Translations under genes and position numbers: made by a program
The notes under the pieces: model-generated
What the model was told of the DNA's origin: nothing
The model's database searches: none
What the model saw: the letters and a program-made list of their open reading frames with translations, nothing else
Virus record (IMG/VR): IMGVR_UViG_3300033121_000332
Coordinates: 1,191-65,190 of that record
Strand: one strand, 5' to 3'
From: a virus
Taxonomy: Duplodnaviria; Caudoviricetes
DNA: 64,000 nucleotides
Shown: piece after piece, positions 22,183 through 59,367 of the stretch
Layout of the letters: the number at the start of each line of letters is the position of its first letter
How positions within the stretch are numbered: the stretch's first letter is position 1

Positions 22183-22211
22183 TTGACATTCTACCATTCC
22201 AGTCGTATTCT
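22183..22211 (+). promoter_or_regulatory. Sigma70-type promoter, antisense to the late operon
   Basis: TTGACA (22183-88), 17 nt, TATTCT (22206-11). Confidence 0.6.
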
Positions 22212-22217
22212 ACCACT

Positions 22218-22297
22218 GCCTATTCAGGTAAGAACCACAAATGACCACGCCTCCTGTGGTCAAAAGGGGGAGCCGCCCGCGCTCCCCCTTTAGTTTT
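22218..22297 (+). ncRNA. Candidate small RNA with GCCUCCU loop
   Basis: Promoter upstream; hairpin TGACCAC-GCCTCCT-GTGGTCA (22242-62); terminator downstream; no ORF. Ends are estimated. Confidence 0.45.
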
Positions 22298-22298
22298 T
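22263..22298. terminator. Bidirectional intrinsic terminator
   Basis: AAAGGGGGAGC-cgcccgc-GCTCCCCCTTT with T-rich tails on both strands. Confidence 0.8.
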
Positions 22299-28203: not shown

Positions 28204-28997
28204 TAAGTCTCCTTGTCAGTGGTCACAATTTTCTTGGCCGCTGGCATGAAATGATACTTACCGTGTTTAAGCACCGAAGGGTCGTCAGTGAACATTCGAT
28301 GCCCGTGTGTCTTGAAGGAATCCATCAACGCCTGATAATAAGTTGTCCGGCGTTCCTGTTCCATCTGTTCCATATTATACCGATGCTCCTTGGCAACTTG
28401 TATCGCTTCGGCTTCTGAAAATTTCTCTCCCGGACGATGCGCCCGAACCAGCGCATCCCGCTCACGCAGCATCCGCTTCAAGTCGTCCAGGTCAGATTCG
28501 TTCGGTTCTCGATACAGTCCAAGGCATAACTCACCATCTTTGGTCGCCCCTGTCCCATTACAGCATTCGGGATGGTGAGCAACCGTAGTCAGATGAGTGT
28601 AAAACCCCTGACCGCGAGTGTCCACGGTCGAGGGGTTAAACTCCTCTTCGCTTGGTTCGTGATATTCTTCCAGTACAAAGCGTGGAAGCGTAATGTCCAC
28701 ATCTATGTCATGAACGAATTTCACGCCAGCCGGGGTTTCACCCTCACATTGATAGACTTGCGTGTAAAGCCGATACCGTGCGCGTTTCTCTCCATTTACT
28801 ACGTGCATAGAGATAGATTCATCCGGGTGTGCCGGCCAAATCAAGCGCACATTCGACTTTCCATTAGAAGCTAGTCCAGCTATTTTGTCGATTTTCTTTT
28901 GAAAGGCGGCAATACGCGCATCATTCCACGGAGATTCATAATTTTCATCAGGAACCTTGTCGAAAAAATGCGGGGAACTGGTTTCTGGTATATACAA
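28203..28997 (-). CDS. Hypothetical protein
   Basis: 264-aa ORF coupled to the next gene (TAATG). Confidence 0.65.
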   Translation of the reverse strand: MYIPETSSPHFFDKVPDENYESPWNDARIAAFQKKIDKIAGLASNGKSNVRLIWPAHPDESISMHVVNGEKRARYRLYTQVYQCEGETPAGVKFVHDIDVDITLPRFVLEEYHEPSEEEFNPSTVDTRGQGFYTHLTTVAHHPECCNGTGATKDGELCLGLYREPNESDLDDLKRMLRERDALVRAHRPGEKFSEAEAIQVAKEHRYNMEQMEQERRTTYYQALMDSFKTHGHRMFTDDPSVLKHGKYHFMPAAKKIVTTDKET

Positions 28998-44665: not shown

Positions 44666-44694
44666 TTGACACGGACAGCGAGTGAGAGTATATT
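44666..44694 (+). promoter_or_regulatory. Early sigma70 promoter P1
   Basis: TTGACA-17-TATATT. Confidence 0.8.
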
Positions 44695-44744
44695 GCACTC
44701 ATCGCAGGCAATCACGCAGGCGAAACAGACTAACAGGAGGCAAC

Positions 44745-44972
44745 ATGAACCGATTCAGACTTCACCTTATTGATCCAATCTCCGGTGACTGGACAGCTGT
44801 CAACCATACAGTACAAGTAGAGGGAGGCATGACAGACGCTGACGTAGACAAGGCATTGCTGGCAGTGTTCCCTACGCTAAACCTTGACAACATATCAACC
44901 GACGGGGATGACTCCTCAGTCTATATTGAATTTGACGGTCAACTGGTCGCAGAATTCAGACGCGAACGCTAA
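44745..44972 (+). CDS. Small early protein
   Basis: ACAGGAGGC RBS before MNRFRLHLID. Confidence 0.75.
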   Translation: MNRFRLHLIDPISGDWTAVNHTVQVEGGMTDADVDKALLAVFPTLNLDNISTDGDDSSVYIEFDGQLVAEFRRER

Positions 44973-44983
44973 CAGGAGGCAAT

Positions 44984-45175
44984 ATGACTAAAGAGGAAAT
45001 TAAGACGCTGGAAAACGAACTACGCAAGTGCAGGCAAGATGTATTCTCCGACGATGAGGCCATCGCAGAGGCAGCACAGGAGCGTATATATGAAATCAAG
45101 GCATTGCTTCAGCTCGTTTATGATCGTCAGTGGGCGTCATCAATGTCTAACCGCAGCTACTTGGATATCTGCTAA
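44984..45175 (+). CDS. Small early protein
   Basis: ACAGGAGGC RBS. Confidence 0.75.
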   Translation: MTKEEIKTLENELRKCRQDVFSDDEAIAEAAQERIYEIKALLQLVYDRQWASSMSNRSYLDIC

Positions 45176-45186
45176 CAGGAGGCAAC

Positions 45187-45426
45187 ATGACATACACAAT
45201 CGATGCAATCCGCAAAGATAACAATGGAAAACTGCCAGCATGGGCCTGGCCGGGCGGATACCCTCTCTATTACTTGGATGAAAAAAACAATGTCCTTTGT
45301 CCAGAGTGTGCAAACAAAACAGGCTATTGTGCTGATGTAGTAGCCTGTGGCGTGAACTGGGAAGACGCGAATTTATACTGTGATGACTGCTCACAGCGTA
45401 TCGAGTCCGCATATGCGGAAGACTAA
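45187..45426 (+). CDS. Small early zinc-binding protein (AWPGGYP family)
   Basis: ACAGGAGGC RBS; AWPGGYPL, CPEC and CDDC motifs. Confidence 0.75.
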   Translation: MTYTIDAIRKDNNGKLPAWAWPGGYPLYYLDEKNNVLCPECANKTGYCADVVACGVNWEDANLYCDDCSQRIESAYAED

Positions 45427-45437
45427 CAGGAGGCAAT

Positions 45438-45662
45438 ATGATAGACGTAATGAATCTTTGCACATCGGAAATAATCACGTATGACACCAATGATCCAGTT
45501 GAGGCTGTCAAGCTGGCATTTCTGCAACACGACCGACACAATTTCAATACTTCGCAATACGCCGATATCCTGCCGACGTTAGGGTGCGCCGACAATGGCA
45601 AGCATACGGTAAGCTGCGGCAACTGGGCAGCGTTCAAAGACGGGCGAAGATTGCCGTTTTAA
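45438..45662 (+). CDS. Small early protein
   Basis: ACAGGAGGC RBS. Confidence 0.75.
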   Translation: MIDVMNLCTSEIITYDTNDPVEAVKLAFLQHDRHNFNTSQYADILPTLGCADNGKHTVSCGNWAAFKDGRRLPF

Positions 45663-45679
45663 TCTACAGGAGGCAAGCC

Positions 45680-45811
45680 ATGACTAAACTGATCGGCATC
45701 ATCCTGGTAGCTAGTGCGATTTACTGGTTTTGCACCTACTGGCCAAACACGGTGAGCAATGGGGCGATGGTCACGGCGCAGACGCAGATAACACGCAGCT
45801 TAAACAAGTGA
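45680..45811 (+). CDS. 43-aa single-TM early protein
   Basis: ACAGGAGGC RBS; MTKLIGIILVASAIYWFCTYW. Confidence 0.65.
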   Translation: MTKLIGIILVASAIYWFCTYWPNTVSNGAMVTAQTQITRSLNK

Positions 45812-45843
45812 TTAAGAGTTTAAGCATTTGTTTAACGCAATGT

Positions 45844-45875
45844 CCAGTCTTGACAATTGACAAGGCTGGTATAAT
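45844..45875 (+). promoter_or_regulatory. Extended -10 promoter overlapped by an inverted repeat
   Basis: CCAGTCTTG-N8-CAAGGCTGG followed by TATAAT (TGgTATAAT); the TTGACA lies only 14 nt upstream. Confidence 0.5.
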
Positions 45876-45892
45876 CAACACAGGAGGCAATC

Positions 45893-46144
45893 ATGACAAT
45901 TCTAGGTTTCGTAAAATGGGGACGAGATTTAATCCCGCACCTGCAATCGGAAGAGAATGCACCAAAGCTCCAGAATCGCGGAGACAATACGTTCTATGGG
46001 CAGGTTGATGTTTACTTGCCGGAACTCTTGGAGATGCTGGACGGCAAGGCATACGGATATGTGCGTATTGACTATGCTGATAGGCAAGGGGTGATTCTAT
46101 TCGCCGAGAATAACAGGCAAGACGGTTCTTTTAGTTTCAGCTAA
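45893..46144 (+). CDS. Small early protein
   Basis: CACAGGAGGC RBS. Confidence 0.75.
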   Translation: MTILGFVKWGRDLIPHLQSEENAPKLQNRGDNTFYGQVDVYLPELLEMLDGKAYGYVRIDYADRQGVILFAENNRQDGSFSFS

Positions 46145-46156
46145 ACACAGGAGGCA

Positions 46157-46357
46157 ATGATGACTTTTAACGAATTCAAGAAAGAATATTACCGGCTAGT
46201 GAAGATTATCACTAGTCACTGGCCGGATGACAAGGAAAGCATGGAAGCAAAATCATCAATCAGTGAGCTGGTGGAAGAGTATCCTGACTTTGAAGCACAG
46301 ATTGATGAACTTGATTGTGAGCAGCAAATCCCAAACATGTCTTATTTGGTACTATAG
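46157..46357 (+). CDS. Small acidic early protein
   Basis: CACAGGAGGC RBS. Confidence 0.75.
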   Translation: MMTFNEFKKEYYRLVKIITSHWPDDKESMEAKSSISELVEEYPDFEAQIDELDCEQQIPNMSYLVL

Positions 46358-46366
46358 GAGGCAATC

Positions 46367-46690
46367 ATGAAACGAGCTATTAAAAACGGGAATCCGTTCC
46401 ACCTGCTACCTGAAGAGTTCATTCTCCATTCTTTGACAGTGGCAGGAGTGCATAAATTCTGGCCGTATCGGATACTCGGTAATATTCGAATGGTGACAGC
46501 GAGTAATACCCACTTTATCAGCGATATTGAATCCGCTTGCGTAGTAGTTGGTGAAGTTGGCGAGTGTAAGAGTTTGACACTGCGGGTTAGCGTGTGCTTT
46601 CCAGATGACGGTAACAAAGTGATGCCTGGAATCATTCGCTACACATTGACGAAGCTGACGCACAAGGTGACACTTAAACTGGATCAATAA
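46367..46690 (+). CDS. Early protein
   Basis: AGGAGGC RBS. Confidence 0.7.
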   Translation: MKRAIKNGNPFHLLPEEFILHSLTVAGVHKFWPYRILGNIRMVTASNTHFISDIESACVVVGEVGECKSLTLRVSVCFPDDGNKVMPGIIRYTLTKLTHKVTLKLDQ

Positions 46691-46707
46691 TTCCAGCAAT
46701 TATCCGC

Positions 46708-46736
46708 TTGACACAACCATTGATTGAGAGTAAGAT
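46708..46736 (+). promoter_or_regulatory. Early sigma70 promoter P2
   Basis: TTGACA-17-TAAGAT. Confidence 0.8.
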
Positions 46737-46795
46737 GCAAGCATAACGAAACGGATTGACAATCAACCCAAATTGAAACGGACAACGGAGGCTAT

Positions 46796-47062
46796 ATGAT
46801 CAAAGAAACCAGAGAAGAAAGAGACAAGCGCATCGCCAAGCTGGAAGAAACCACATGGGCAAAGCAGGAAGCAAAAAAGACAAAGTATGTTCCCGTGTGG
46901 GTACTTCAAATCGACTATGGCGGAGGCTGGCAAGATGAAACCTGGAGCGCGACAAGGGCATGTGCATATGGCGAAGCGGTAACTTATCGCCAAAACTGTA
47001 TTTATCCGGTTCGCGTATTCTGCCGGCGGATTAAACGGGAAGAAGTCTTTCCCGCCGTTTAA
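46796..47062 (+). CDS. Small early protein
   Basis: GGAGGC RBS. Confidence 0.7.
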   Translation: MIKETREERDKRIAKLEETTWAKQEAKKTKYVPVWVLQIDYGGGWQDETWSATRACAYGEAVTYRQNCIYPVRVFCRRIKREEVFPAV

Positions 47063-47093
47063 CAAATCAGATCATTAAATCAACGGAGGCATT

Positions 47094-47354
47094 ATGAAAT
47101 TGACACCTTATGGGGCAAACATGAACACGGTAGAATTCAATGATGGCCGGATTGTTCTATTCAGCTATAAAACAGCGGTTGCGGTATTCATTCCCGGCGA
47201 GGGGATCAAGCGCACGGCTACGAAATGGTCAATGACTACTACCAAGCATATCAATAAATGGGTTGCTGGAACATTCTCCCCGAACGTGACAGTTGAAACG
47301 GTTGCACAGGCAGAGATTGAAACCCTGGCGGCAGAATCACAGGAGGCAGCATGA
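47094..47354 (+). CDS. Conserved small phage early protein
   Basis: GGAGGC RBS; VLFSYKTAVA...KWSMTTTKHINKW motif of a widespread phage family. Confidence 0.75.
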   Translation: MKLTPYGANMNTVEFNDGRIVLFSYKTAVAVFIPGEGIKRTATKWSMTTTKHINKWVAGTFSPNVTVETVAQAEIETLAAESQEAA

Positions 47355-47950
47355 ATATCTTTTCAATTTTCAGTGACATCACATGCGGGGAGGCTTGCTG
47401 GTACGCTAAAGAAGATGTTTGCAAGTGTTCCTGTGGCGGGAAGAATCACGGTTGTCTGCGAACCTCAGATGGCCACCGACCAACACGAACCGCAAAGATA
47501 GACGGTGAAAGATATGAACTCGTGGCAGTCGGGAAGAATCTTTACTCCGAAGCTGCACAATTAACGCAGGGTCTAGGATGGCAATCGATTGAACACTTTG
47601 AAGCGTGGTCGCCCCTGGAAGATTCCAAAACCATAATGTCTTATCATCATTCCTATGACAGACACGGCACAACATCGGGAGCAGTTATCAGGCTGAAACC
47701 CGCAAGCAAAGCGCAGATTGCAAACTGGCCAGAGTTAGCAGCTTTTCAGGATATCCCACGATATGAGGCGGTTTATCTGTTGTGGATCAGATTGGAAGTG
47801 CCGAAGCAGTATCGATGCGCTCACGATTGTCAAAAGTGCGCTGAGAAATATCAGGAAATAGCAGCGGTTATACTTCCCCCACAATGGGCCGGAAAAGTGG
47901 AAACGGTGACGCTTACATCAAAATATTATCCGGTTGAGGAGGCAGCATGA
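47351..47950 (+). CDS. Cys-rich early protein
   Basis: CACAGGAGGC RBS; CGEACWYAKEDVCKCSCGGKNHG metal-binding segment. Confidence 0.7.
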   Translation: MNIFSIFSDITCGEACWYAKEDVCKCSCGGKNHGCLRTSDGHRPTRTAKIDGERYELVAVGKNLYSEAAQLTQGLGWQSIEHFEAWSPLEDSKTIMSYHHSYDRHGTTSGAVIRLKPASKAQIANWPELAAFQDIPRYEAVYLLWIRLEVPKQYRCAHDCQKCAEKYQEIAAVILPPQWAGKVETVTLTSKYYPVEEAA

Positions 47951-48132
47951 CCAAGTGGCAAGCAAAATTGAACGACGCAGAGAAGCGCAAAGCGGCATTG
48001 TCCCGCAACCAGGCAATCCGTGAGCAATGGCTACACGGTGACGCGCTGGAAACTGGCCGGCAGTCTGAGCCTATCCCAAAGGTGAGCAGGGGTATTTTAT
48101 TTAACCTGCTTGCATGGATCTGGCCGTTCTAA
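47947..48132 (+). CDS. Small early protein
   Basis: AGGAGGC RBS; ATGA overlap. Confidence 0.65.
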   Translation: MTKWQAKLNDAEKRKAALSRNQAIREQWLHGDALETGRQSEPIPKVSRGILFNLLAWIWPF

Positions 48133-48153
48133 CAATCACAGGAGGAGGATGAC

Positions 48154-48414
48154 ATGAGAGGAAATTTACTGACCAGTAACTATCAAAAGGATTTGGTATT
48201 CATCGGAACGGATAACCCCGACATACCCGAACATGAGTTTGTATCGTTCATTGAACAGGAAATGGATATTGAATCGGGACGCGACTTTGACGGCATTGAA
48301 GTTGAAGACATGACCCCTGAACACACAAACACGCGACGCGATTTACAATCATATTGTAAATTGTCAAATGATTACGAATTCGTTTATTTTGTTCGGTTGC
48401 GTCCGGTTCGTTGA
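48154..48414 (+). CDS. Small acidic early protein
   Basis: CACAGGAGG RBS. Confidence 0.7.
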   Translation: MRGNLLTSNYQKDLVFIGTDNPDIPEHEFVSFIEQEMDIESGRDFDGIEVEDMTPEHTNTRRDLQSYCKLSNDYEFVYFVRLRPVR

Positions 48415-48418
48415 TAAA

Positions 48419-48982
48419 TTAAGCCGCGACATCATCGGCGGTTGCTTCTTTGAGAAGTTTAACCAGATGCGGTTTGTTCTCTTCCAGATATTTGACAGCT
48501 TCTTCTTCGGTGCATCCGTGTTCGGATTGCACGAGTTGAAGCGCATGAGTGTAACCCTGGATTACAACGGAGCGAACATGACTGACGCTTTCCACCCTAG
48601 AAGTCGCTTCACCAGATAGAAGCTGAGTCACATCGGTTACGATTTTAATACCACCGATCAGATCACGGAATGAGACATTCTCATTTTCTAATGCTTGGGT
48701 TGCCCGATCAAAAAGCATATGTTGGAGATTCTTTGCCTTTTCGAGAATCGATTCTCGCAACATCTCTTTAGCTTCAGCGGTTCGCGGGTGAATCTTTTTC
48801 CCCCTCGACCAATCGCGCACCGCATCAGTTGATACCCCGGCAGATTTAGCGGCATACGCTTCAGGATAGATAATTCCTGAGCTGCGCTCACCATATTCAA
48901 GTGCAAGCAAAGCGGATGCCTGGGTGACAGCGCGATCCGGTATTTGATCAATCGGGTTTTCAGGGATTAGGGAAATTGACAT
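48419..48982 (-). CDS. HTH DNA-binding protein, terminase-small-subunit-like
   Basis: AAKSAGVSTDAVRDWSR HTH, helical middle, QLLSGEATSRVE motif. Confidence 0.5.
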   Translation of the reverse strand: MSISLIPENPIDQIPDRAVTQASALLALEYGERSSGIIYPEAYAAKSAGVSTDAVRDWSRGKKIHPRTAEAKEMLRESILEKAKNLQHMLFDRATQALENENVSFRDLIGGIKIVTDVTQLLSGEATSRVESVSHVRSVVIQGYTHALQLVQSEHGCTEEEAVKYLEENKPHLVKLLKEATADDVAA

Positions 48983-48983
48983 A

Positions 48984-49361
48984 TTAGATCAGTTCGATGA
49001 TGGCGAATAGTCCATACTGTAAAGCGGATTCTCTCTCTCTTTCCAGAGGGGAGCAGGAACGGGTTGAATTATCGTAAATGTACCATTTCTCGATGACTTG
49101 AGAATTGGTGTAAATTGAGGGGGAAGAGTGGGCGAATTCGCTTCGCTTGAAAGCGTGAAAGCTCCCATCTCGGATAATCACCACGTAATCAGGATTGATT
49201 TTTGCAATCCTGGGGGATGTTTGAATAAAACAGGGTAGATTACACAGTTCCTTGAACCAATTACGATGAGTTTTATAGATGTAACTTCCATCAATGATTA
49301 AGCATATGGAAGGATCAGACAATAAACGGCGATATTTGCGCTGGCTCCGAGGTGTACCCAT
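48984..49361 (-). CDS. Hypothetical protein (AT-rich)
   Basis: 125-aa ORF ending 1 nt before the next gene's start. Confidence 0.5.
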   Translation of the reverse strand: MGTPRSQRKYRRLLSDPSICLIIDGSYIYKTHRNWFKELCNLPCFIQTSPRIAKINPDYVVIIRDGSFHAFKRSEFAHSSPSIYTNSQVIEKWYIYDNSTRSCSPLERERESALQYGLFAIIELI

Positions 49362-49511
49362 AAGGCAAAGCTACGCTGTAAATGGTTCGATGGCTTCAGG
49401 TGCTTCCTAAACCGATTCCCTTTTGAGAATCAGAGGTCAGCTTTAAAACTATGAACGAATTGAATTTATAGCACAAAACCGAAAATAATACAAGCAGAGT
49501 GAATTATTTTG

Positions 49512-49540
49512 TTGACACAGACAGCGATTGAGAGTAAGAT
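49512..49540 (+). promoter_or_regulatory. Early sigma70 promoter P3
   Basis: TTGACA-17-TAAGAT; spacer nearly identical to P1. Confidence 0.8.
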
Positions 49541-49587
49541 ACAGACATCGAAGCGGCAATGGGGCCGCCGATGAACAGGAGGCAGAT

Positions 49588-49836
49588 ATGAAATTAAACA
49601 ACAACCAAAAAATGGAAATCAAAAGATTGGCAGTAGCAGCAGCGCAGGCATTCGTTGACGAATTTGACGAACCCTTAGATTCCAGCAAAACCGATTGGGA
49701 TGCGGTTGCGTGGCAAGAAGACAGGCGCAAATTGTCATTCCGCGCCAAACTGAAAGCAAGCAGCGACTTGGACGCTGAGGCGTGGGAATTGTACAGCACC
49801 ACATTGGAAGCTAAAACAGGGACACTTTGCAACTAA
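49588..49836 (+). CDS. Small early protein
   Basis: ACAGGAGGC RBS before MKLNNNQK. Confidence 0.75.
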   Translation: MKLNNNQKMEIKRLAVAAAQAFVDEFDEPLDSSKTDWDAVAWQEDRRKLSFRAKLKASSDLDAEAWELYSTTLEAKTGTLCN

Positions 49837-49887
49837 CCCACACCCCACAACCCCGCAGGCCACGGCCTGCACTACGAGGAGGCAGAT

Positions 49888-50040
49888 ATGGAGACAATCA
49901 GATACAGCAAAGACGCGAGCATCTGCATCGTGCATAACAGCGAAACAGGTGAGTATTCCTGTCCGACGCAAGGCGACATGGACACGTTGCCGGTCGGCCC
50001 TGACCTGACCGACGAAGAGATATTATTACTAGACAGCTAA
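49888..50040 (+). CDS. 50-aa acidic early protein (below the ORF-track cutoff)
   Basis: AGGAGGC RBS; METIRYSKDASICIVHNSETGEYSCPTQGDMDTLPVGPDLTDEEILLLDS. Confidence 0.65.
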   Translation: METIRYSKDASICIVHNSETGEYSCPTQGDMDTLPVGPDLTDEEILLLDS

Positions 50041-50091
50041 CCTAACTCCCCCCCACAAACCCGCAGGCCACGGCCTGCACAGGAGGCAATC

Positions 50092-50331
50092 ATGGCACGA
50101 CTCGATTTAATCAAATTCACGACACGCGACGGTAAACCCTGCAAAGAATACGGCTTGCAGGAAGTGAACGAAGACGGCAAATTGCTAAGGCTTTACGACA
50201 ACGAAGCGGATCAGTTTACTTCGTTCCCGAACGCGAAATTCAGCTTTGTGCGAACGCTCGGCACAATGGACGATTCAGACGACTTCTGGAATCTGGTTGC
50301 GGAGTGCAAGCAGATCAACCCGCAATCTTAA
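50092..50331 (+). CDS. Small early protein
   Basis: CACAGGAGGC RBS. Confidence 0.75.
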   Translation: MARLDLIKFTTRDGKPCKEYGLQEVNEDGKLLRLYDNEADQFTSFPNAKFSFVRTLGTMDDSDDFWNLVAECKQINPQS

Positions 50332-50341
50332 GGAGGCAATC

Positions 50342-54067: not shown

Positions 54068-54358
54068 TTATTTGGGTTTGGCAAGCGTGGCGGCGCGGTA
54101 TTTATCCACCCACGATTGACAGTATTTGGCGACTCTTTCGGTGTACGCGGTACACAGATTAGTGGTGTCATTGTAGCGGTTATCGTGGGCGGCTTGCCCA
54201 ATGGCGTCCTCTGCCTCGTCCCATGCTTTCCCCGATACGCTGAAGGTATCAGGGCATTCACCGTTTAGGCTTACCAACTCCTTCACGCAGTCTGTGACTA
54301 TCCGGTTGCAGTGCCGGAAAGTCGCTTGCATCACTTGTTCTGACTTGTTGAGTTCCAC
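54068..54358 (-). CDS. Hypothetical protein
   Basis: AGGAGGC RBS + GTG. Confidence 0.65.
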   Translation of the reverse strand: MELNKSEQVMQATFRHCNRIVTDCVKELVSLNGECPDTFSVSGKAWDEAEDAIGQAAHDNRYNDTTNLCTAYTERVAKYCQSWVDKYRAATLAKPK

Positions 54359-54367
54359 TGTTGCCTC

Positions 54368-56128
54368 CTAAAATTGCGGGATACCAGACTCATCTTCGTC
54401 ATCCGGCCCATCCGTTTTCCATTGGGATTCGTAGTACTGACCTGAAACAGAATCGTAGAACAACTCGCAAACCCCTTCTTGCCCGATGTAATGCGGCTTG
54501 ACCTTCTGAACGTGGATATCAACCTTGTTCGACCGTTCGGACTTGCGACGATACAGGGAGATGATGTTGTGCGCCAAGTTATACCAGTGCGCCGAACCGG
54601 GAAGGGCATACGGTGTAATTACCGGCCCGTCAATGTCCCCAGGCGTGTAAGTCATCTTCGGATGAACGACCAGCCAACCATGCAAGTTTTCGTGTTGAAG
54701 AAAATGCTGGAGTTTGTTGATAGTGACGCGGATATAGTCAGTCTCGTTCATCGAGTCAGGGCGCACATGATCAAACTTCGCCCATGGGTCAATCGTCAAT
54801 CCTTGAATCCCATACTCTTCTCTGGCACGTTTCGCCATTGCCATCACAAAAGGAATGGTCAGCGGCTCCCCGTTTTTCGCCTCGATGAAGTAAAGCGAAG
54901 ACTTCAGTATCCTTTTCGCTTCTTCGTACATCTCGTCACCGATCCGAGGCGTCGGCCCGTGGTAAAACGGTGATCCGGTGTACGCCTCCATAAACCGGGA
55001 ATAAAAGTATGCGGGAGGGGCAAATTCCGGGGAAGCAACGGCAAACTTCCACCCATGCTGGATCATCATATTGGCCATCAATGCGTTCATAAAATGAGAC
55101 TTCCCCGCCGTGGGACTGCCAGTGACCATTGTCAAATATCCGGGAAGTATTGTGTACAAGTCTCTCAGGTTGTTCCATCCGGGGGATATCCCTTGCGGCA
55201 ACCCATTCCTCCGGTATTCGTCAAGCTGAGGCTCGTACTCATCCAGCGTGTACAATCCCGGCGTCTCATCGGGAACCCCTGTGTCGTAGCCGACACCCTC
55301 AACTCTCAAAACATCGTCTTCGGGATCTTTCGCGCCAACATAGCTGGCGATATTCACCAGTTCCGCATCGTCTTTCGGTGGATTGCATCGGTTGGCGTTT
55401 TCCATTCTCAGGCAAGCTAGAATCCCCTGAGTACTAATCCCCTTGCGCCTCATTGCCCCTGCAAACGCCAACAAAACCTTATGCCGGTCGCCTGGGATTA
55501 ACTGCTCCCCATCGTGAACAAGTACCCCTGGTGTGGCCGGCGCGGGGGTGGCCATCATATCGATCAACCACTTCGGCATCTCTGGCAGGTGTCCATTAAC
55601 CGGGACACCCCACGTATACGTGTTCCCTGAGTAGTGGGTACTCCCAGGGGCCACGATGTATCCACCATCCCCTCTGAAATCCAAGCCTATCCCTAGCTTG
55701 CTTGGCTTAGTAACGCTCCCCTGCGTGTTGGCAATATGGAATCCCGGATGCTGGAAAAGAATGTGATACCCACCACTCCCTGTCTTTGCGTAAACCTTTT
55801 CAGGGAACTCTCCATGTTTTCGTACCAGATCCCGAATGGTGTCATTTCCCCCGTGATAAGAATCCACATCAAGCACCACAAATCCTGACTTGCTGCCAGT
55901 GGCCACTCCGATATTCGCCTCCGGCCACATCCCCCACCACTTACGGATCTGCGCCAAGTCTGTTGTCGCATCCTGCAACCCGTTTATCGTTCGGGGATGC
56001 TTCCCGTTGCTTTTGCAATCCTTGTGGTGGCAAGAGCAGATGTGGTTGGCGTCAGGGGTGTGAAGCGGCATTACCGCCCATCCCTTTTCGGCGTACTCTT
56101 GAGCAATCTCTAATTTAGTCTTAGTCAT
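54368..56128 (-). CDS. Bifunctional primase-polymerase (PrimPol) + PriCT + SF4 (T7 gp4/Twinkle-like) helicase
   Basis: GWAVMPL...NGKHP...WWGMWPEANIGVATG...VLDVD; Walker A GSPTAGKS; IDPW and HGWLVVHP; GGAGGC RBS before ATG 56128. Confidence 0.85.
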   Translation of the reverse strand: MTKTKLEIAQEYAEKGWAVMPLHTPDANHICSCHHKDCKSNGKHPRTINGLQDATTDLAQIRKWWGMWPEANIGVATGSKSGFVVLDVDSYHGGNDTIRDLVRKHGEFPEKVYAKTGSGGYHILFQHPGFHIANTQGSVTKPSKLGIGLDFRGDGGYIVAPGSTHYSGNTYTWGVPVNGHLPEMPKWLIDMMATPAPATPGVLVHDGEQLIPGDRHKVLLAFAGAMRRKGISTQGILACLRMENANRCNPPKDDAELVNIASYVGAKDPEDDVLRVEGVGYDTGVPDETPGLYTLDEYEPQLDEYRRNGLPQGISPGWNNLRDLYTILPGYLTMVTGSPTAGKSHFMNALMANMMIQHGWKFAVASPEFAPPAYFYSRFMEAYTGSPFYHGPTPRIGDEMYEEAKRILKSSLYFIEAKNGEPLTIPFVMAMAKRAREEYGIQGLTIDPWAKFDHVRPDSMNETDYIRVTINKLQHFLQHENLHGWLVVHPKMTYTPGDIDGPVITPYALPGSAHWYNLAHNIISLYRRKSERSNKVDIHVQKVKPHYIGQEGVCELFYDSVSGQYYESQWKTDGPDDEDESGIPQF

Positions 56129-56415
56129 TTCAGCCTCCACGTCTCGTAGCCTTTCGCCTTGCCTTCGCTTTTGAACTGCTCCCACGCTGCAAAGAATTGA
56201 CCTATCGTGAACTTGTCGTGTGGGGCGTGATACCTGGCAGCGTTCAAGGCCACGGCTTTCCAATACTTCGCCGGCACTTCGCCCACCAGTGCCTCATACC
56301 ACGCTCTCGCTAGGCTGTCCATCTCTTGCTCGTCGAGCGTCCTCAAACACGTCAGCAAACGTGCGCGGCTTAATAAACTGGTCAGGCCGCTCAGAAGGGT
56401 TTCCTTTCCAAACAT
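56125..56415 (-). CDS. Putative helicase-loader-like small protein overlapping the initiator 3' end
   Basis: GAGGCAATG start at 56415 (alternative 56514); position between initiator and helicase. Confidence 0.45.
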   Translation of the reverse strand: MFGKETLLSGLTSLLSRARLLTCLRTLDEQEMDSLARAWYEALVGEVPAKYWKAVALNAARYHAPHDKFTIGQFFAAWEQFKSEGKAKGYETWRLK

Positions 56416-57229
56416 TGCCTCGTCCGATGCTGGACTCTCTTTCGGAAGGGATGTCAATGGGGTTGGTGACAAGTTTGTGACAGTATTCGGCGGCTTGTTT
56501 TCGTTTTGTTTCATAGTCCGTTCCTTTGGCTTGTCTGTTTGTTCGTTCCTGGTAGGAATTGATTAGTCCCGTAAAATTCCGCTTGCTGTATCCGTTGGTG
56601 CGCCATGCTGTGACCACTTCACGCCACAGCTTCATGTCAGAGATATTAGCTGCCTCTAATGCTTCTTGCTGGAAGATGGGTACGCCTTCGCCAAAGACTT
56701 CCTGATAAATGCTTACTGGCGTGTCATCGGGGGAGAGAGACTCTCTCTCTCTCTCTCTCTTATGTAAATCACTATTATGTAAATCACTATTACTGTAAAG
56801 CCCCTGGTTTACGGGGGGCGACAAAACGGGGGGTGGACAATCCGCCTGTGGCGTGTCGGTATCTGGCTCATTAGTGTCTGGTTCATCCAAGTCCGGATCA
56901 TCCCCTCCCATTTCCCATGACCGCGTTCTGTCCTGGACACTTACTGGTTCGTCGAATACCATGTAAGACGAGACAAAACGCCCATCCTTCCCCCTACTTT
57001 TAGTGAAAGTTAGGTAACCGGCCAACTCAGCTTCTTTCATTATCCGGCGTCGAGCGAATTTGCCGATCCCGCCATTTTTTTCAATATCGCGTATGCGGCA
57101 CTCCCAATCATCCGAGTGGGAAAGTAAATATGTAAGCATCCCACGAGTTTCATAACTCAGACTTTTATCTTGGAGTAAGGATCGTGAGATAGATGTATAG
57201 TGGCCGCGACGAACCCTGACAATGGACAT
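56294..57229 (-). CDS. Replication initiator (lambda O / DnaD-like, N-terminal wHTH)
   Basis: YTSISRSLLQDKSLSYETRGMLTYLLSHSDDW...ELAGYL pattern; internal direct repeats. Confidence 0.8.
   Translation of the reverse strand: MSIVRVRRGHYTSISRSLLQDKSLSYETRGMLTYLLSHSDDWECRIRDIEKNGGIGKFARRRIMKEAELAGYLTFTKSRGKDGRFVSSYMVFDEPVSVQDRTRSWEMGGDDPDLDEPDTNEPDTDTPQADCPPPVLSPPVNQGLYSNSDLHNSDLHKRERERESLSPDDTPVSIYQEVFGEGVPIFQQEALEAANISDMKLWREVVTAWRTNGYSKRNFTGLINSYQERTNRQAKGTDYETKRKQAAEYCHKLVTNPIDIPSERESSIGRGNVWKGNPSERPDQFIKPRTFADVFEDARRARDGQPSESVV
56731..56800. repeat. (CT)10 microsatellite plus 15-bp tandem repeat (probable origin iterons)
   Basis: (CT)10 at 56741-60; TATGTAAATCACTAT x2 at 56761-90. Confidence 0.7.
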
Positions 57230-57263
57230 AATTTCTCCTACAAAAATAAAGTTCGCTAAACGC

Positions 57264-57292
57264 TTGACACCGGGGCGATGTCCTTCTACACT
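57264..57292 (+). promoter_or_regulatory. Sigma70-type promoter, antisense to the replication operon
   Basis: TTGACA (57264-69), 17 nt, TACACT (57287-92). Confidence 0.65.
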
Positions 57293-57298
57293 GGCTTC

Positions 57299-57372
57299 AA
57301 CTTGTTCGTTTCAAGCATCGTGATTCCGTCACGAAGCCTCCAAAAAGGGAGGGGTTAGTCGCCCTCCCTTTT
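57299..57372 (+). ncRNA. Candidate antisense small RNA in the initiator leader
   Basis: Promoter, hairpin TCGTGA-ttccg-TCACGA, AAGCCTCC linker and terminator; no ORF. 5' end estimated. Confidence 0.5.
57343..57372. terminator. Bidirectional intrinsic terminator
   Basis: AAAAGGGAGGG-gttagtcg-CCCTCCCTTTT. Confidence 0.8.
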
Positions 57373-57378
57373 ACAATT

Positions 57379-57807
57379 TCAACACTCATCGTCGGCGTCC
57401 GACTTCTTGATGCGAGGAGTCGCTACCAGCACAAAACCGTTACTGACGGGGATATCATCAGCCACCGTTACGTTGATCTCCGGCCCGAAAATCCTGTCTA
57501 GCGAAGCCTTGACGACTAAAGTTTTGGTGACAAAGCAGGTTACTTTGATGTTCGGCCCGAAAATTCTTTCTACCAAGTCGATCCGATCAGCTGTCAGCCT
57601 TGGACAATGATTGACTCCCCGTACAGTAATGCGGGTCGTAACCGGCGTGTCTGGTTCCATGTCCATCTCCACCGCAACGATCTCGGCATCGGGGAATATT
57701 AGCTCAATCTCGCGTTCAATCCTGTTTTTGCAGGTGTCCAGTAAAAAATCACGTACACGATCCAGATGGGCGTCAGTCAAATCGTCAAGTCCGTCAGCAT
57801 CTACCAT
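57379..57807 (-). CDS. Hypothetical protein
   Basis: AGGAGG RBS; internal repeat RIFGP.I.VT x2. Confidence 0.65.
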   Translation of the reverse strand: MVDADGLDDLTDAHLDRVRDFLLDTCKNRIEREIELIFPDAEIVAVEMDMEPDTPVTTRITVRGVNHCPRLTADRIDLVERIFGPNIKVTCFVTKTLVVKASLDRIFGPEINVTVADDIPVSNGFVLVATPRIKKSDADDEC

Positions 57808-57977
57808 TTCGTCCTCCTGAAAACACGAATCCCGCCATTTTAGTTATACTTCCGACCAAAGAAGTGCAACGTAAAAGTGGCGGGATTGTTACCGCGTCGA
57901 ATAAACTGGTTTTATGCTCTTACGCTGCTCTATCTTCTTTGGTCGGATGCACAGAATACATCAGCGTCCCCTCACTG

Positions 57978-58343
57978 TCAATAGCTTTTTTTCTTTCTTT
58001 GTGGGCCGGCATCCACAGGTGTCGCATACCGATCCCGGTAGTCACGATGACCGTGAAACGCAGCATAAGCAGAGTCAGGGGCGCGACCCGTCCACAGCTC
58101 ATCCATATCAGCCTGCGTCAGCACCAAAGACCCCTTTCTATGCTTGGTTTTACAGTATTTGCAGTCAACCGTAAATTCGTGCCGGCGAGTCATGTCCTCA
58201 TAAACGGAATAGGTAAACCCGTGTTGCGTCTCAGCGTCCAGGTTAATACCGTATTTTTTTGCAATCGCCTTCCGCTTTTCCGCTTCGGCTTCTGCAATAT
58301 TCCACAGTTTGTTGTCTATCTTGAGTTTCATCACATCCCCCAC
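57978..58343 (-). CDS. Hypothetical protein with CxxC
   Basis: CKYCK; overlaps the resolvase 3' end. Confidence 0.6.
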   Translation of the reverse strand: MGDVMKLKIDNKLWNIAEAEAEKRKAIAKKYGINLDAETQHGFTYSVYEDMTRRHEFTVDCKYCKTKHRKGSLVLTQADMDELWTGRAPDSAYAAFHGHRDYRDRYATPVDAGPQRKKKSY

Positions 58344-58762: not shown

Positions 58763-58968
58763 ATCTCCCTCGCTACTTCCTTGAACGCCTGATCGAACCG
58801 GGTGGATCGAAGTTTTATCAACTCGACTCTGTTGTTCTTGACCTTGTAGAACGTAATCCGTCCCTCATTGCTCCGCTTCATCGAGTGACCTTTCCTGTGA
58901 GTGTACTCGTCTGCTGCGACTTTGGGGTTTCGATACCATCCGAGTTTGTTGAAATCTGTCTCAGTCAT
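58759..58968 (-). CDS. Hypothetical protein
   Basis: AGGAGGCTT RBS. Confidence 0.65.
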   Translation of the reverse strand: MTETDFNKLGWYRNPKVAADEYTHRKGHSMKRSNEGRITFYKVKNNRVELIKLRSTRFDQAFKEVAREI

Positions 58969-58977
58969 AAAAGCCTC

Positions 58978-59367
58978 CTAATATGGTGAATTGGCTATCG
59001 CCGCATCGGTTTGGGTTGTCATTTTGGCGCGTGTCTGGAGTGCAGACAGTAATGCCATATACGATGCCAGAATCTTCTCTGCCACCTGATAGTTTATCTT
59101 GGATGCCTCGTATTCATCGTGGATCGGCCCCAAGGCAAATATCGTCATCGCTTGACATTCTGCATCCGTACGGGGTTTCCCATCGTCCCGTCTCTCTGAC
59201 TTATGTCTCATGAATAATTGCGCCTCTAGACAGTCGTGCGCCTGAGCCGCTGCGTTACGTGCCTGAGCTGCCACAAAGAAATCCTGAGCCGCTGTCTGGA
59301 TATCCCTACTTGCTACCTGTAATTGCTCGTCCAACGTCAAAATAGGTTCATCTGTTCGTATTTCCAT
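58978..59367 (-). CDS. Helical protein (possible recombination mediator)
   Basis: Coiled-coil with K.T.A.. pattern; function not established. Confidence 0.55.
   Translation of the reverse strand: MEIRTDEPILTLDEQLQVASRDIQTAAQDFFVAAQARNAAAQAHDCLEAQLFMRHKSERRDDGKPRTDAECQAMTIFALGPIHDEYEASKINYQVAEKILASYMALLSALQTRAKMTTQTDAAIANSPY

Follow-up and report, generated by a model that had tools for sequence, protein, structure and literature searches.

A candidate cis-antisense RNA unit in the leader of the replication-initiator operon of an uncultured phage

The OOP RNA of phage lambda is a 77 nt leftward transcript whose promoter borders the initiator gene O and which is antisense to the pR transcript. 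It ends at tO and acts via RNase III on cII mRNA. In addition, the activity of its promoter pO itself influences replication (PMC3985674, PMC5869508, PMC5415839). A LexA site is a possible operator of pO (PMC5869508). Here, a phage locus is described for which pO/oop is the closest working analogue, although the likeness is functional and does not reflect homology: a blastn search with positions 54300-58000 against 50,697 phage records yielded no match, and the locus has no sequence similarity to oop. The phage is known from an IMG/VR record of 65,190 nt that is classed as linear and 71% complete. The window, i.e. the whole stretch of DNA that was analysed, comprises 64 kb of this record. As in lambda, the initiator gene has at its upstream edge a promoter that is directed against an early operon and would, judged at the sequence level, yield a short terminated RNA of ~75 nt. 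This RNA would reach into the 3' end of the transcript from the preceding gene. With OOP, the overlap includes 52 nt of the cII coding region, whereas here it is confined to the terminator/3' UTR and the read-through leader. The predicted RNA 3' end at ~57372 stops short of the stop codon of the preceding gene (57379-57381), so that no coding sequence is covered. In contrast to lambda, the terminator is shared and bidirectional and gates the replication genes, and both the initiator family and the host differ.

A similar comparison can be made with plasmids. Like the R1 CopA/CopT-tap-repA and the IncI/IncB Inc RNA/repY-repZ systems, the locus has the appearance of a constitutive countertranscript of ~70-90 nt in an initiator leader. 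As with CopA and tap, the antisense RNA would cover the ribosome-binding site (RBS) of a short leader ORF located ~100 nt upstream of the rep start. In contrast to R1, no translational coupling between leader ORF and rep is apparent, the RNA has a single internal hairpin with a small loop, and there is no homology. Furthermore, the phage displays no sign of plasmid maintenance genes: integrase, resolvase and ParB were all absent from the 71% complete 65-kb record. Copy-number control of an episomal state, which a first-pass annotation of this DNA had suggested, finds no support. The P1/P7 c4 RNA (RF01695) and P22 sar share with the predicted RNA an exposed stretch complementary to a phage ribosome-binding region. 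However, c4 is processed from a longer transcript and carries two specific pairing boxes, whereas here the only exposed motif is a generic anti-Shine-Dalgarno (anti-SD) sequence. Finally, the GC-rich stem between an A-tract and a T-tract resembles bidirectional intrinsic terminators usable on both strands. These are usually found between convergent protein genes, whereas the terminator discussed here lies between co-directional genes and has a ~74 nt non-coding RNA unit as its partner.

The phage is uncultured, and its host is possibly acidobacterial. It is near-clonal and widespread in metagenomes from activated sludge and wastewater as well as in some from soil and freshwater. The minus strand carries most genes of the window. 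Among them is a replication-initiator-like gene (56294-57229; 311 aa; phrog_4707, 270, 4221) with a winged-HTH N-terminal domain and the RBS AGGAG at 57239-57235, followed downstream by a 65 aa ORF and the PrimPol-helicase gene (PF09250). The preceding minus-strand gene (57379-57807) has its own promoter and encodes a 142 aa protein without assigned function or recognizable family, for which a search of a protein atlas gave no usable match. The intergenic region (IGR) between both genes, 57230-57378, comprises 149 nt and contains the antisense unit. The nearest promoter able to feed read-through into the initiator leader is P57981 (TTGACA-17-TATTCT, minus strand, 57953-57981).

Three further observations concern the neighbourhood. 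Between P57981 and the 142-aa gene (57808-57946, minus strand), a structured 5' leader of ~140 nt is located that is conserved in the homologous locus L014 (L014:64-210; see below) despite a different ORF behind it. It comprises a long stem, CCGACCAAAGAAG/CTTCTTTGGTCGG, with three compensatory pairs. Just upstream of the SD sequence, AATCCCGCCA/TGGCGGGATT form an alternative hairpin with cgtgTTTT behind it. The leader has no match in Rfam and may act as an attenuator or riboregulator. The 13-nt sequence ATCCCGCCATTTT is found without mismatch both at 57066-57078 within the initiator ORF and at 57829-57841 in the leader of the 142-aa gene, and may be a shared binding or pairing site. Moreover, the initiator ORF contains at 56729-56783 a (GA)n/(CT)n inverted repeat that encodes an RERERE linker, and subsequently a 15-nt tandem, TCTCTCTTATGTAAA / TCACTATTATGTAAA. 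By analogy with lambda O, these repeats may represent an origin inside the initiator gene.

The promoter of the unit is located on the plus strand (57264-57292). It is of the sigma-70 type with the -35 box TTGACA (57264-57269), a 17-nt spacer and the -10 box TACACT (57287-57292), and is directed against the minus-strand early/replication operon. On both strands of the 64 kb, eight exact TTGACA-N17-TAnnnT sites were found compared to 0.45 expected, and none of 100 shuffles reached eight. This means, the promoter at 57264 is more than a chance occurrence. Six sites (44666+, 46708+, 49512+, 57981-, 60616+ and 63287+) are located 35-140 nt ahead of ORFs; in five cases the ORF has a strong SD sequence of the GGAGG type, and that behind 60616+ has only a weak one. 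The other two, 22183+ and 57264+, lack an ORF downstream, are oriented against minus-strand operons and each reach a compact GC-rich hairpin with A-/T-tracts within ~75-80 nt. A terminator scan found these two hairpins to be the only GC-rich ones in intergenic positions of minus-strand operons; a third strong hairpin (28605-28635) lies within an ORF. Since both terminator-bearing junctions hold a consensus promoter aimed at the terminator, this twice-seen design is regarded as real. The first-pass annotation had described both units as one design, and the promoter-to-terminator layout indeed recurs at 22183.

The -35 box and most of the spacer belong to a conserved block of 21-22 nt (57263-57284; (A)GGACATCGCCCCGGTGTCAAG on the minus strand) that is 100% identical in L014, while both of its flanks diverge. 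The block is an imperfect palindrome, GACAtCG-CCC-CGgTGTC (57266-57282), which is unique in the window, with a predicted 7-bp hairpin in the minus-strand RNA, and could therefore serve as an operator or as an mRNA-leader hairpin. Its conservation exceeds the needs of a promoter and may have such another cause. In this respect, the palindrome as a possible operator parallels the LexA site of the lambda promoter. A 19-mer from the block had no match in IMG/VR and four matches in 596 Gb of genomes, which is about chance; these were in unrelated contexts, e.g. glutamine synthetase.

Transcription from 57264 is predicted to yield a ~74 nt non-coding RNA (57299-57372, plus strand), with its presumed start 7 nt past the -10 box and its presumed end at the terminator. 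The predicted RNA (~74-75 nt) folds with a z-score of -4.5, and none of 200 shuffles folded equally well. It would consist of a 16-17-nt single-stranded 5' end, one hairpin, an unpaired stretch CUCCAAAA (predicted unpaired probability ~0.9 or more) and the terminator hairpin with its U-tract. The promoter, the two hairpins, the motif AAGCCTCC and the terminator named in the first-pass annotation are all present where it had placed them. Of the two hairpins, TCGTGA-ttccg-TCACGA (57318-57334) appears in the fold, whereas CTTG-N7-CAAG (57301-57315) has only 4 bp, is missing from the MFE fold and is not kept in L014. AAGCCTCC (57334-57341) is the complement of the strong SD sequence of the phage, GGAGGC(TT), and is unpaired in the predicted RNA. 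The bidirectional intrinsic terminator A5-GGGAGGG-N8-CCCTCCC-T4 (57342-57372; -14.4 and -14.5 kcal/mol on the two strands) begins 8 nt past the stop codon of the 142-aa gene and also closes the plus-strand RNA; its presence is explained well enough by this upstream gene. Over its length, the predicted RNA is antisense to leader positions 70 to 143 nt ahead of the initiator ATG, in agreement with the proposed cis-antisense position. Cmscan found no Rfam family at the gathering threshold or up to an E-value of 10, the best chance matches having E-values above 1. By its signals, the unit is a well-marked, if unproven, candidate for a non-coding RNA gene of the cis-antisense countertranscript kind.

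The comparative case rests on one alignable homologue, L014, whose initiator is 56% identical. Apart from it, the protein database contains the identical initiator on 31 contigs and one 69% relative (P0002). The IGR of L014 comprises 148 nt and has the same layout. Its -35 box is identical, and TTTAAT replaces TACACT at the unchanged 17-nt spacing. Conservation of the promoter boxes, on which the initial proposal depended, holds for the -35 box and the spacing, but the -10-like sequence lacks the canonical A at position 2. The hairpin, GCTAAATG-N8-CATTTAGC, is unrelated in sequence and unchanged in position, adjoining GGAGGC. GGAGGCT (GCCUCC on the RNA) is kept, as is CTTTATTTTTGnAGGAG before the initiator ATG. 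The terminator has acquired a compensatory stem insertion, GGGAGTGG/CCACTCCC, and has U-tracts on both strands. Upstream, a sense promoter (L014:35-63) and the conserved structured leader precede a different, 120 aa ORF. The plus-strand RNA predicted for L014 comprises 78 nt, has the same architecture and folds with a z-score of -5.1; only CUCC is unpaired there. All three units, i.e. the two of the window and that of L014, have retained a U-tract on the sRNA strand (UUUUACAAUUU, UUUAGUUUUU and UUCUUUAUU), and in L014 UUCUUUAUU is better than the tract on the mRNA strand. Such plus-strand U-tracts are hard to explain unless transcription comes from a plus-strand promoter.

Between the window and L014, the hairpin region is ~45% identical, compared to 85-100% for its flanks. 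In plasmid countertranscripts, specificity loops diverge between conserved flanks. By analogy, the divergence pattern fits a specificity determinant of an antisense system. RNAalifold on the two sequences mis-aligned the variable hairpin, and little was gained from it.

Searches for further relatives covered several collections. Queries with the initiator, PrimPol and the 142 aa protein retrieved no close relatives from IMG/VR, and an alignment-based scan of IMG/VR and the JGI metagenomes found only relatives of <=48% identity with unalignable IGRs. GTDB genomes contained nothing alignable. PrimPol relatives of 62-64% identity (L179-L182, L184) have other genes at the initiator position, short IGRs and no such unit. 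In ten near-identical contigs of the same phage, 0-2 SNPs were found in 2.9 kb, so that population variation is silent on constraint. The strict motif TTGAC[AT]-N16-18-TAnnnT was absent upstream of the initiator at all 80 distant loci in either orientation, a scan that is uninformative because hosts differ and IGRs are short. Two distant members of the same initiator family, L183 and L015, show a sense promoter with a leader terminator behind it in place of the unit. At L183:520-735 and L015:2290-2500, a large hairpin and a T-tract are located directly before the initiator start, an arrangement that points to attenuation-type control of this initiator family. Judged by these loci, terminator gating of the family appears to be recurrent and the antisense unit does not.

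A mosaic junction was observed in two variants of the phage, L004 and L011. Compared with window positions 57372-57440, both are divergent upstream of the terminator and identical downstream of it. The upstream gene of L004 encodes 119 aa instead of 142 aa in the window, and L011 shows only the last part of the gene. The terminator is a mosaic recombination boundary, and the candidate sRNA unit moves together with the initiator module.

No consensus minus-strand promoter was found between the terminator and the initiator ATG. The best candidate in the IGR, GTGTCA-16-TATTTT (8/12), was rejected, as it would leave almost no leader. As neither the initiator nor the PrimPol-helicase gene is served by its own promoter past the terminator, their expression should come from read-through originating at P57981 or further upstream. 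A contig of 469 nt from a metatranscriptome library, with no strand given and DNA carry-over possible, spans 57003-57471 across terminator and IGR and fits such a read-through RNA. These metatranscriptome data are assembled contigs, patchy pieces of 150-470 nt that lack strand and ends, and their gaps do not constitute evidence.

On the mRNA strand, the sequence directly behind the terminator U-tract is GGAGGC-ttc-GTG with a frame of 11 codons. This candidate leader uORF (57297-57341, minus strand) has the SD sequence GGAGG at 57341-57337, the GTG at 57332-57330 and a TGA at 57299-57297. GGAGGC is the general strong SD sequence of the phage, with C following at 22 of 34 gene-linked GGAGG sites. 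The distance from GGAGG to the start codon is 4-5 nt in genuine phage genes and 4 nt in the uORF. The uORF comprises 11 codons in the window, six in variant L004 due to a 1-nt deletion, and five in L014, where the mRNA strand reads GGAGGctaaATG (GGAGGC-taa-ATG). The uORF starts within the 5' arm of the variable hairpin in both the window and L014. The stop codon is ~63-65 nt away from the initiator ATG at 57229 and farther upstream in L014. At this distance, classical stop-start coupling is not possible. Since the predicted RNA is complementary to the entire uORF, both are compatible in the manner of R1 CopA/tap. The first-pass annotation had named such a short leader ORF as a reason to abandon the RNA. 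With its spacing matching that of genuine genes, the uORF is a live rival or else a companion: From the sequence, it likely coexists with the RNA, or it could alone explain the GGAGGC motif.

The preferred reading, which is judged evenly poised between right and wrong, is that the unit encodes a ~74 nt countertranscript against the read-through leader of the initiator/PrimPol operon. The plus-strand promoter would fire against the minus-strand operon, and the resulting RNA would end at the shared bidirectional terminator. It would be perfectly complementary to the first ~74 nt of the read-through leader including the SD-like GGAGGC and the uORF start. Pairing could mask the ribosome site of the leader and/or form a duplex for RNase III. 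In a second mode, convergent transcription might interfere with read-through polymerases. The net effect would be a damped expression of initiator and PrimPol. In addition, the terminated mRNA of the 142-aa gene might be destabilized by pairing of the RNA with its 3' hairpin, as cII mRNA is by OOP. Attenuation of the pT181/pIP501 type was considered and rejected, since the terminator is located 5' and not 3' of the remaining target in the mRNA.

The sister unit, unit 1, is located at 22183-22298 (plus strand) between two tail-fibre-like genes. It comprises the promoter TTGACA-17-TATTCT, the hairpin GACCAC-GCCUCCU-GUGGUC and a bidirectional terminator at 22266-22288. Its loop (5-7 nt) and the adjoining stem form GCCUCCUGUG. 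Over 9-10 nt, this sequence complements cACAGGAGGC, a ribosome-site module that 11 early cassette genes of the plus strand have in common (44.7-50.1 kb). None of the start codons near the GGAGGC motif of unit 1 is suitably spaced: a GTG follows after 1 nt, a TTG after 9 nt. In the region of these early genes (44666-50341, plus strand), three near-identical promoters, TTGACAc(a/g)gacagcga(g/t)tgagagTA(A/T)(G/A)(A/T)T, drive together with a stereotyped start module, aACAGGAGGCAAt(c)ATG, ~17 small early ORFs. For the 57264 unit, the RBS matches reported by the first-pass annotation are real: GGAGGCTT precedes the ATGs at 58968 and 59727, and GGAGGCT precedes the PrimPol ATG at 56128. The corresponding trans matches are GGAGGCUU at 58978 and 59736 (8 nt) and (U)GGAGGCU at 56138 (7-8 nt). 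At no start site was a trans match of >=9 nt found, the maximum being 8 nt. Of the five minus-strand GGAGGC genes, two have the UU extension past GGAGGC, a near-chance proportion. L014 carries UAGCCUCC as its RNA motif and GGAGGCUA ahead of the gene that follows the initiator, a possible single covariation with 1-in-4 odds by chance. By complementarity, unit 1 is the stronger anti-RBS candidate. This means, the suggestion of two sRNAs addressing different RBS classes has some footing for unit 1 (9-10 nt, 11 genes) and little for unit 2, where matches are <=8 nt to a generic SD sequence.

Several other explanations for the locus have to be weighed. All elements of the junction might serve the minus strand alone: the terminator the 142-aa gene, GGAGGC-N3-GTG the uORF, the palindrome as operator or hairpin, followed by the initiator RBS. 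The plus-strand promoter would then have no activity or no relevance, and AAGCCTCC would simply mirror an SD sequence. This explanation, though unlikely, can draw on the GGAGG-N4-start spacing, which equals that of 22 genuine GGAGGC genes, on GGAGGctaaATG at the same position in L014 (the probability for a start codon in both by chance is estimated at ~1-2%), on the position of the terminator only 8 nt after a stop codon, and on the leader terminators before the related initiators L183 and L015. However, it does not account for the fact that both IGRs with a terminator contain an exact consensus promoter pointing towards it, or that all three units have kept their plus-strand U-tracts. Furthermore, unit 1 shares GGAGGC but has no start at a working spacing, neither peptide nor length of the uORF (11, six and five codons) is conserved, and the start codon is buried in a hairpin arm in both sequences. 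It is very unlikely that the promoter is active and the RNA itself irrelevant, with read-through polymerases hindered by collision or occlusion, as proposed for lambda pO against pR, or that the unit is a regulated promoter with the palindrome as its operator, bound by the initiator or some other phage protein. Lambda provides a precedent, as it is the activity of pO and not the amount of oop RNA that influences replication and read-through from pR (PMC3985674). In the locus itself, the best-conserved part is the -35/spacer block and not the RNA body. But the hairpin position, GCCUCC and the plus-strand U-tract are also kept in L014, and the strong RNA structure fits a stable product. A chance arrangement is hardly credible.

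The RNA might also act mainly in trans as an anti-SD sRNA on the GGAGGC(UU) sites of early/replication genes and form a two-sRNA system with unit 1, which is quite unlikely. In the predicted RNA, CUCC(A)n is unpaired, and 8-nt matches exist at the RBSs of 58968 and 59727 as well as 7-8 nt at PrimPol 56128. The possible UAGCCUCC / GGAGGCUA covariation in L014 (1-in-4 by chance) and the 9-10-nt match of the unit-1 loop GCCUCCUGUG to cACAGGAGGC of 11 early genes point in the same direction. An accessible motif and an intrinsic terminator, as expected of a trans-acting anti-SD sRNA, were found; extended specific complementarity was not. The 57264 unit has no 9-nt trans match at all, GGAGGC is generic with a UU extension in two of five minus-strand genes (near chance), and L014 leaves just CUCC unpaired. 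A pairing of 6-8 nt would, moreover, have to compete with 16S rRNA at every strong SD sequence and be unspecific. A wider proposal, in its entirety likewise quite unlikely, envisages translational control by two RNAs built on the RBS modules of the phage. Here, the RNA from unit 1 (22218-22298) would display GCCUCCUGUG in its loop and silence ~11-17 early genes with cACAGGAGGC. The unit 2 RNA would gate the replication genes, in cis on leader and uORF and in trans on GGAGGCUU. For each RNA, the terminator shared with a protein gene would couple read-through to antisense pairing.

If the RNA is made, the preferred reading would add an OOP/CopA-style countertranscript before an initiator gene in a lineage of phages remote from the enterobacterial models. 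It would also imply that the design of a backward promoter at the edge of a replication gene arose independently. The shared terminator, the uORF and the sister unit would then constitute a compact system in which the combination of terminator read-through, antisense pairing and masking of ribosome sites by phages could be studied. Both promoter-to-terminator units merit annotation as non-coding RNA candidates instead of empty intergenic DNA.
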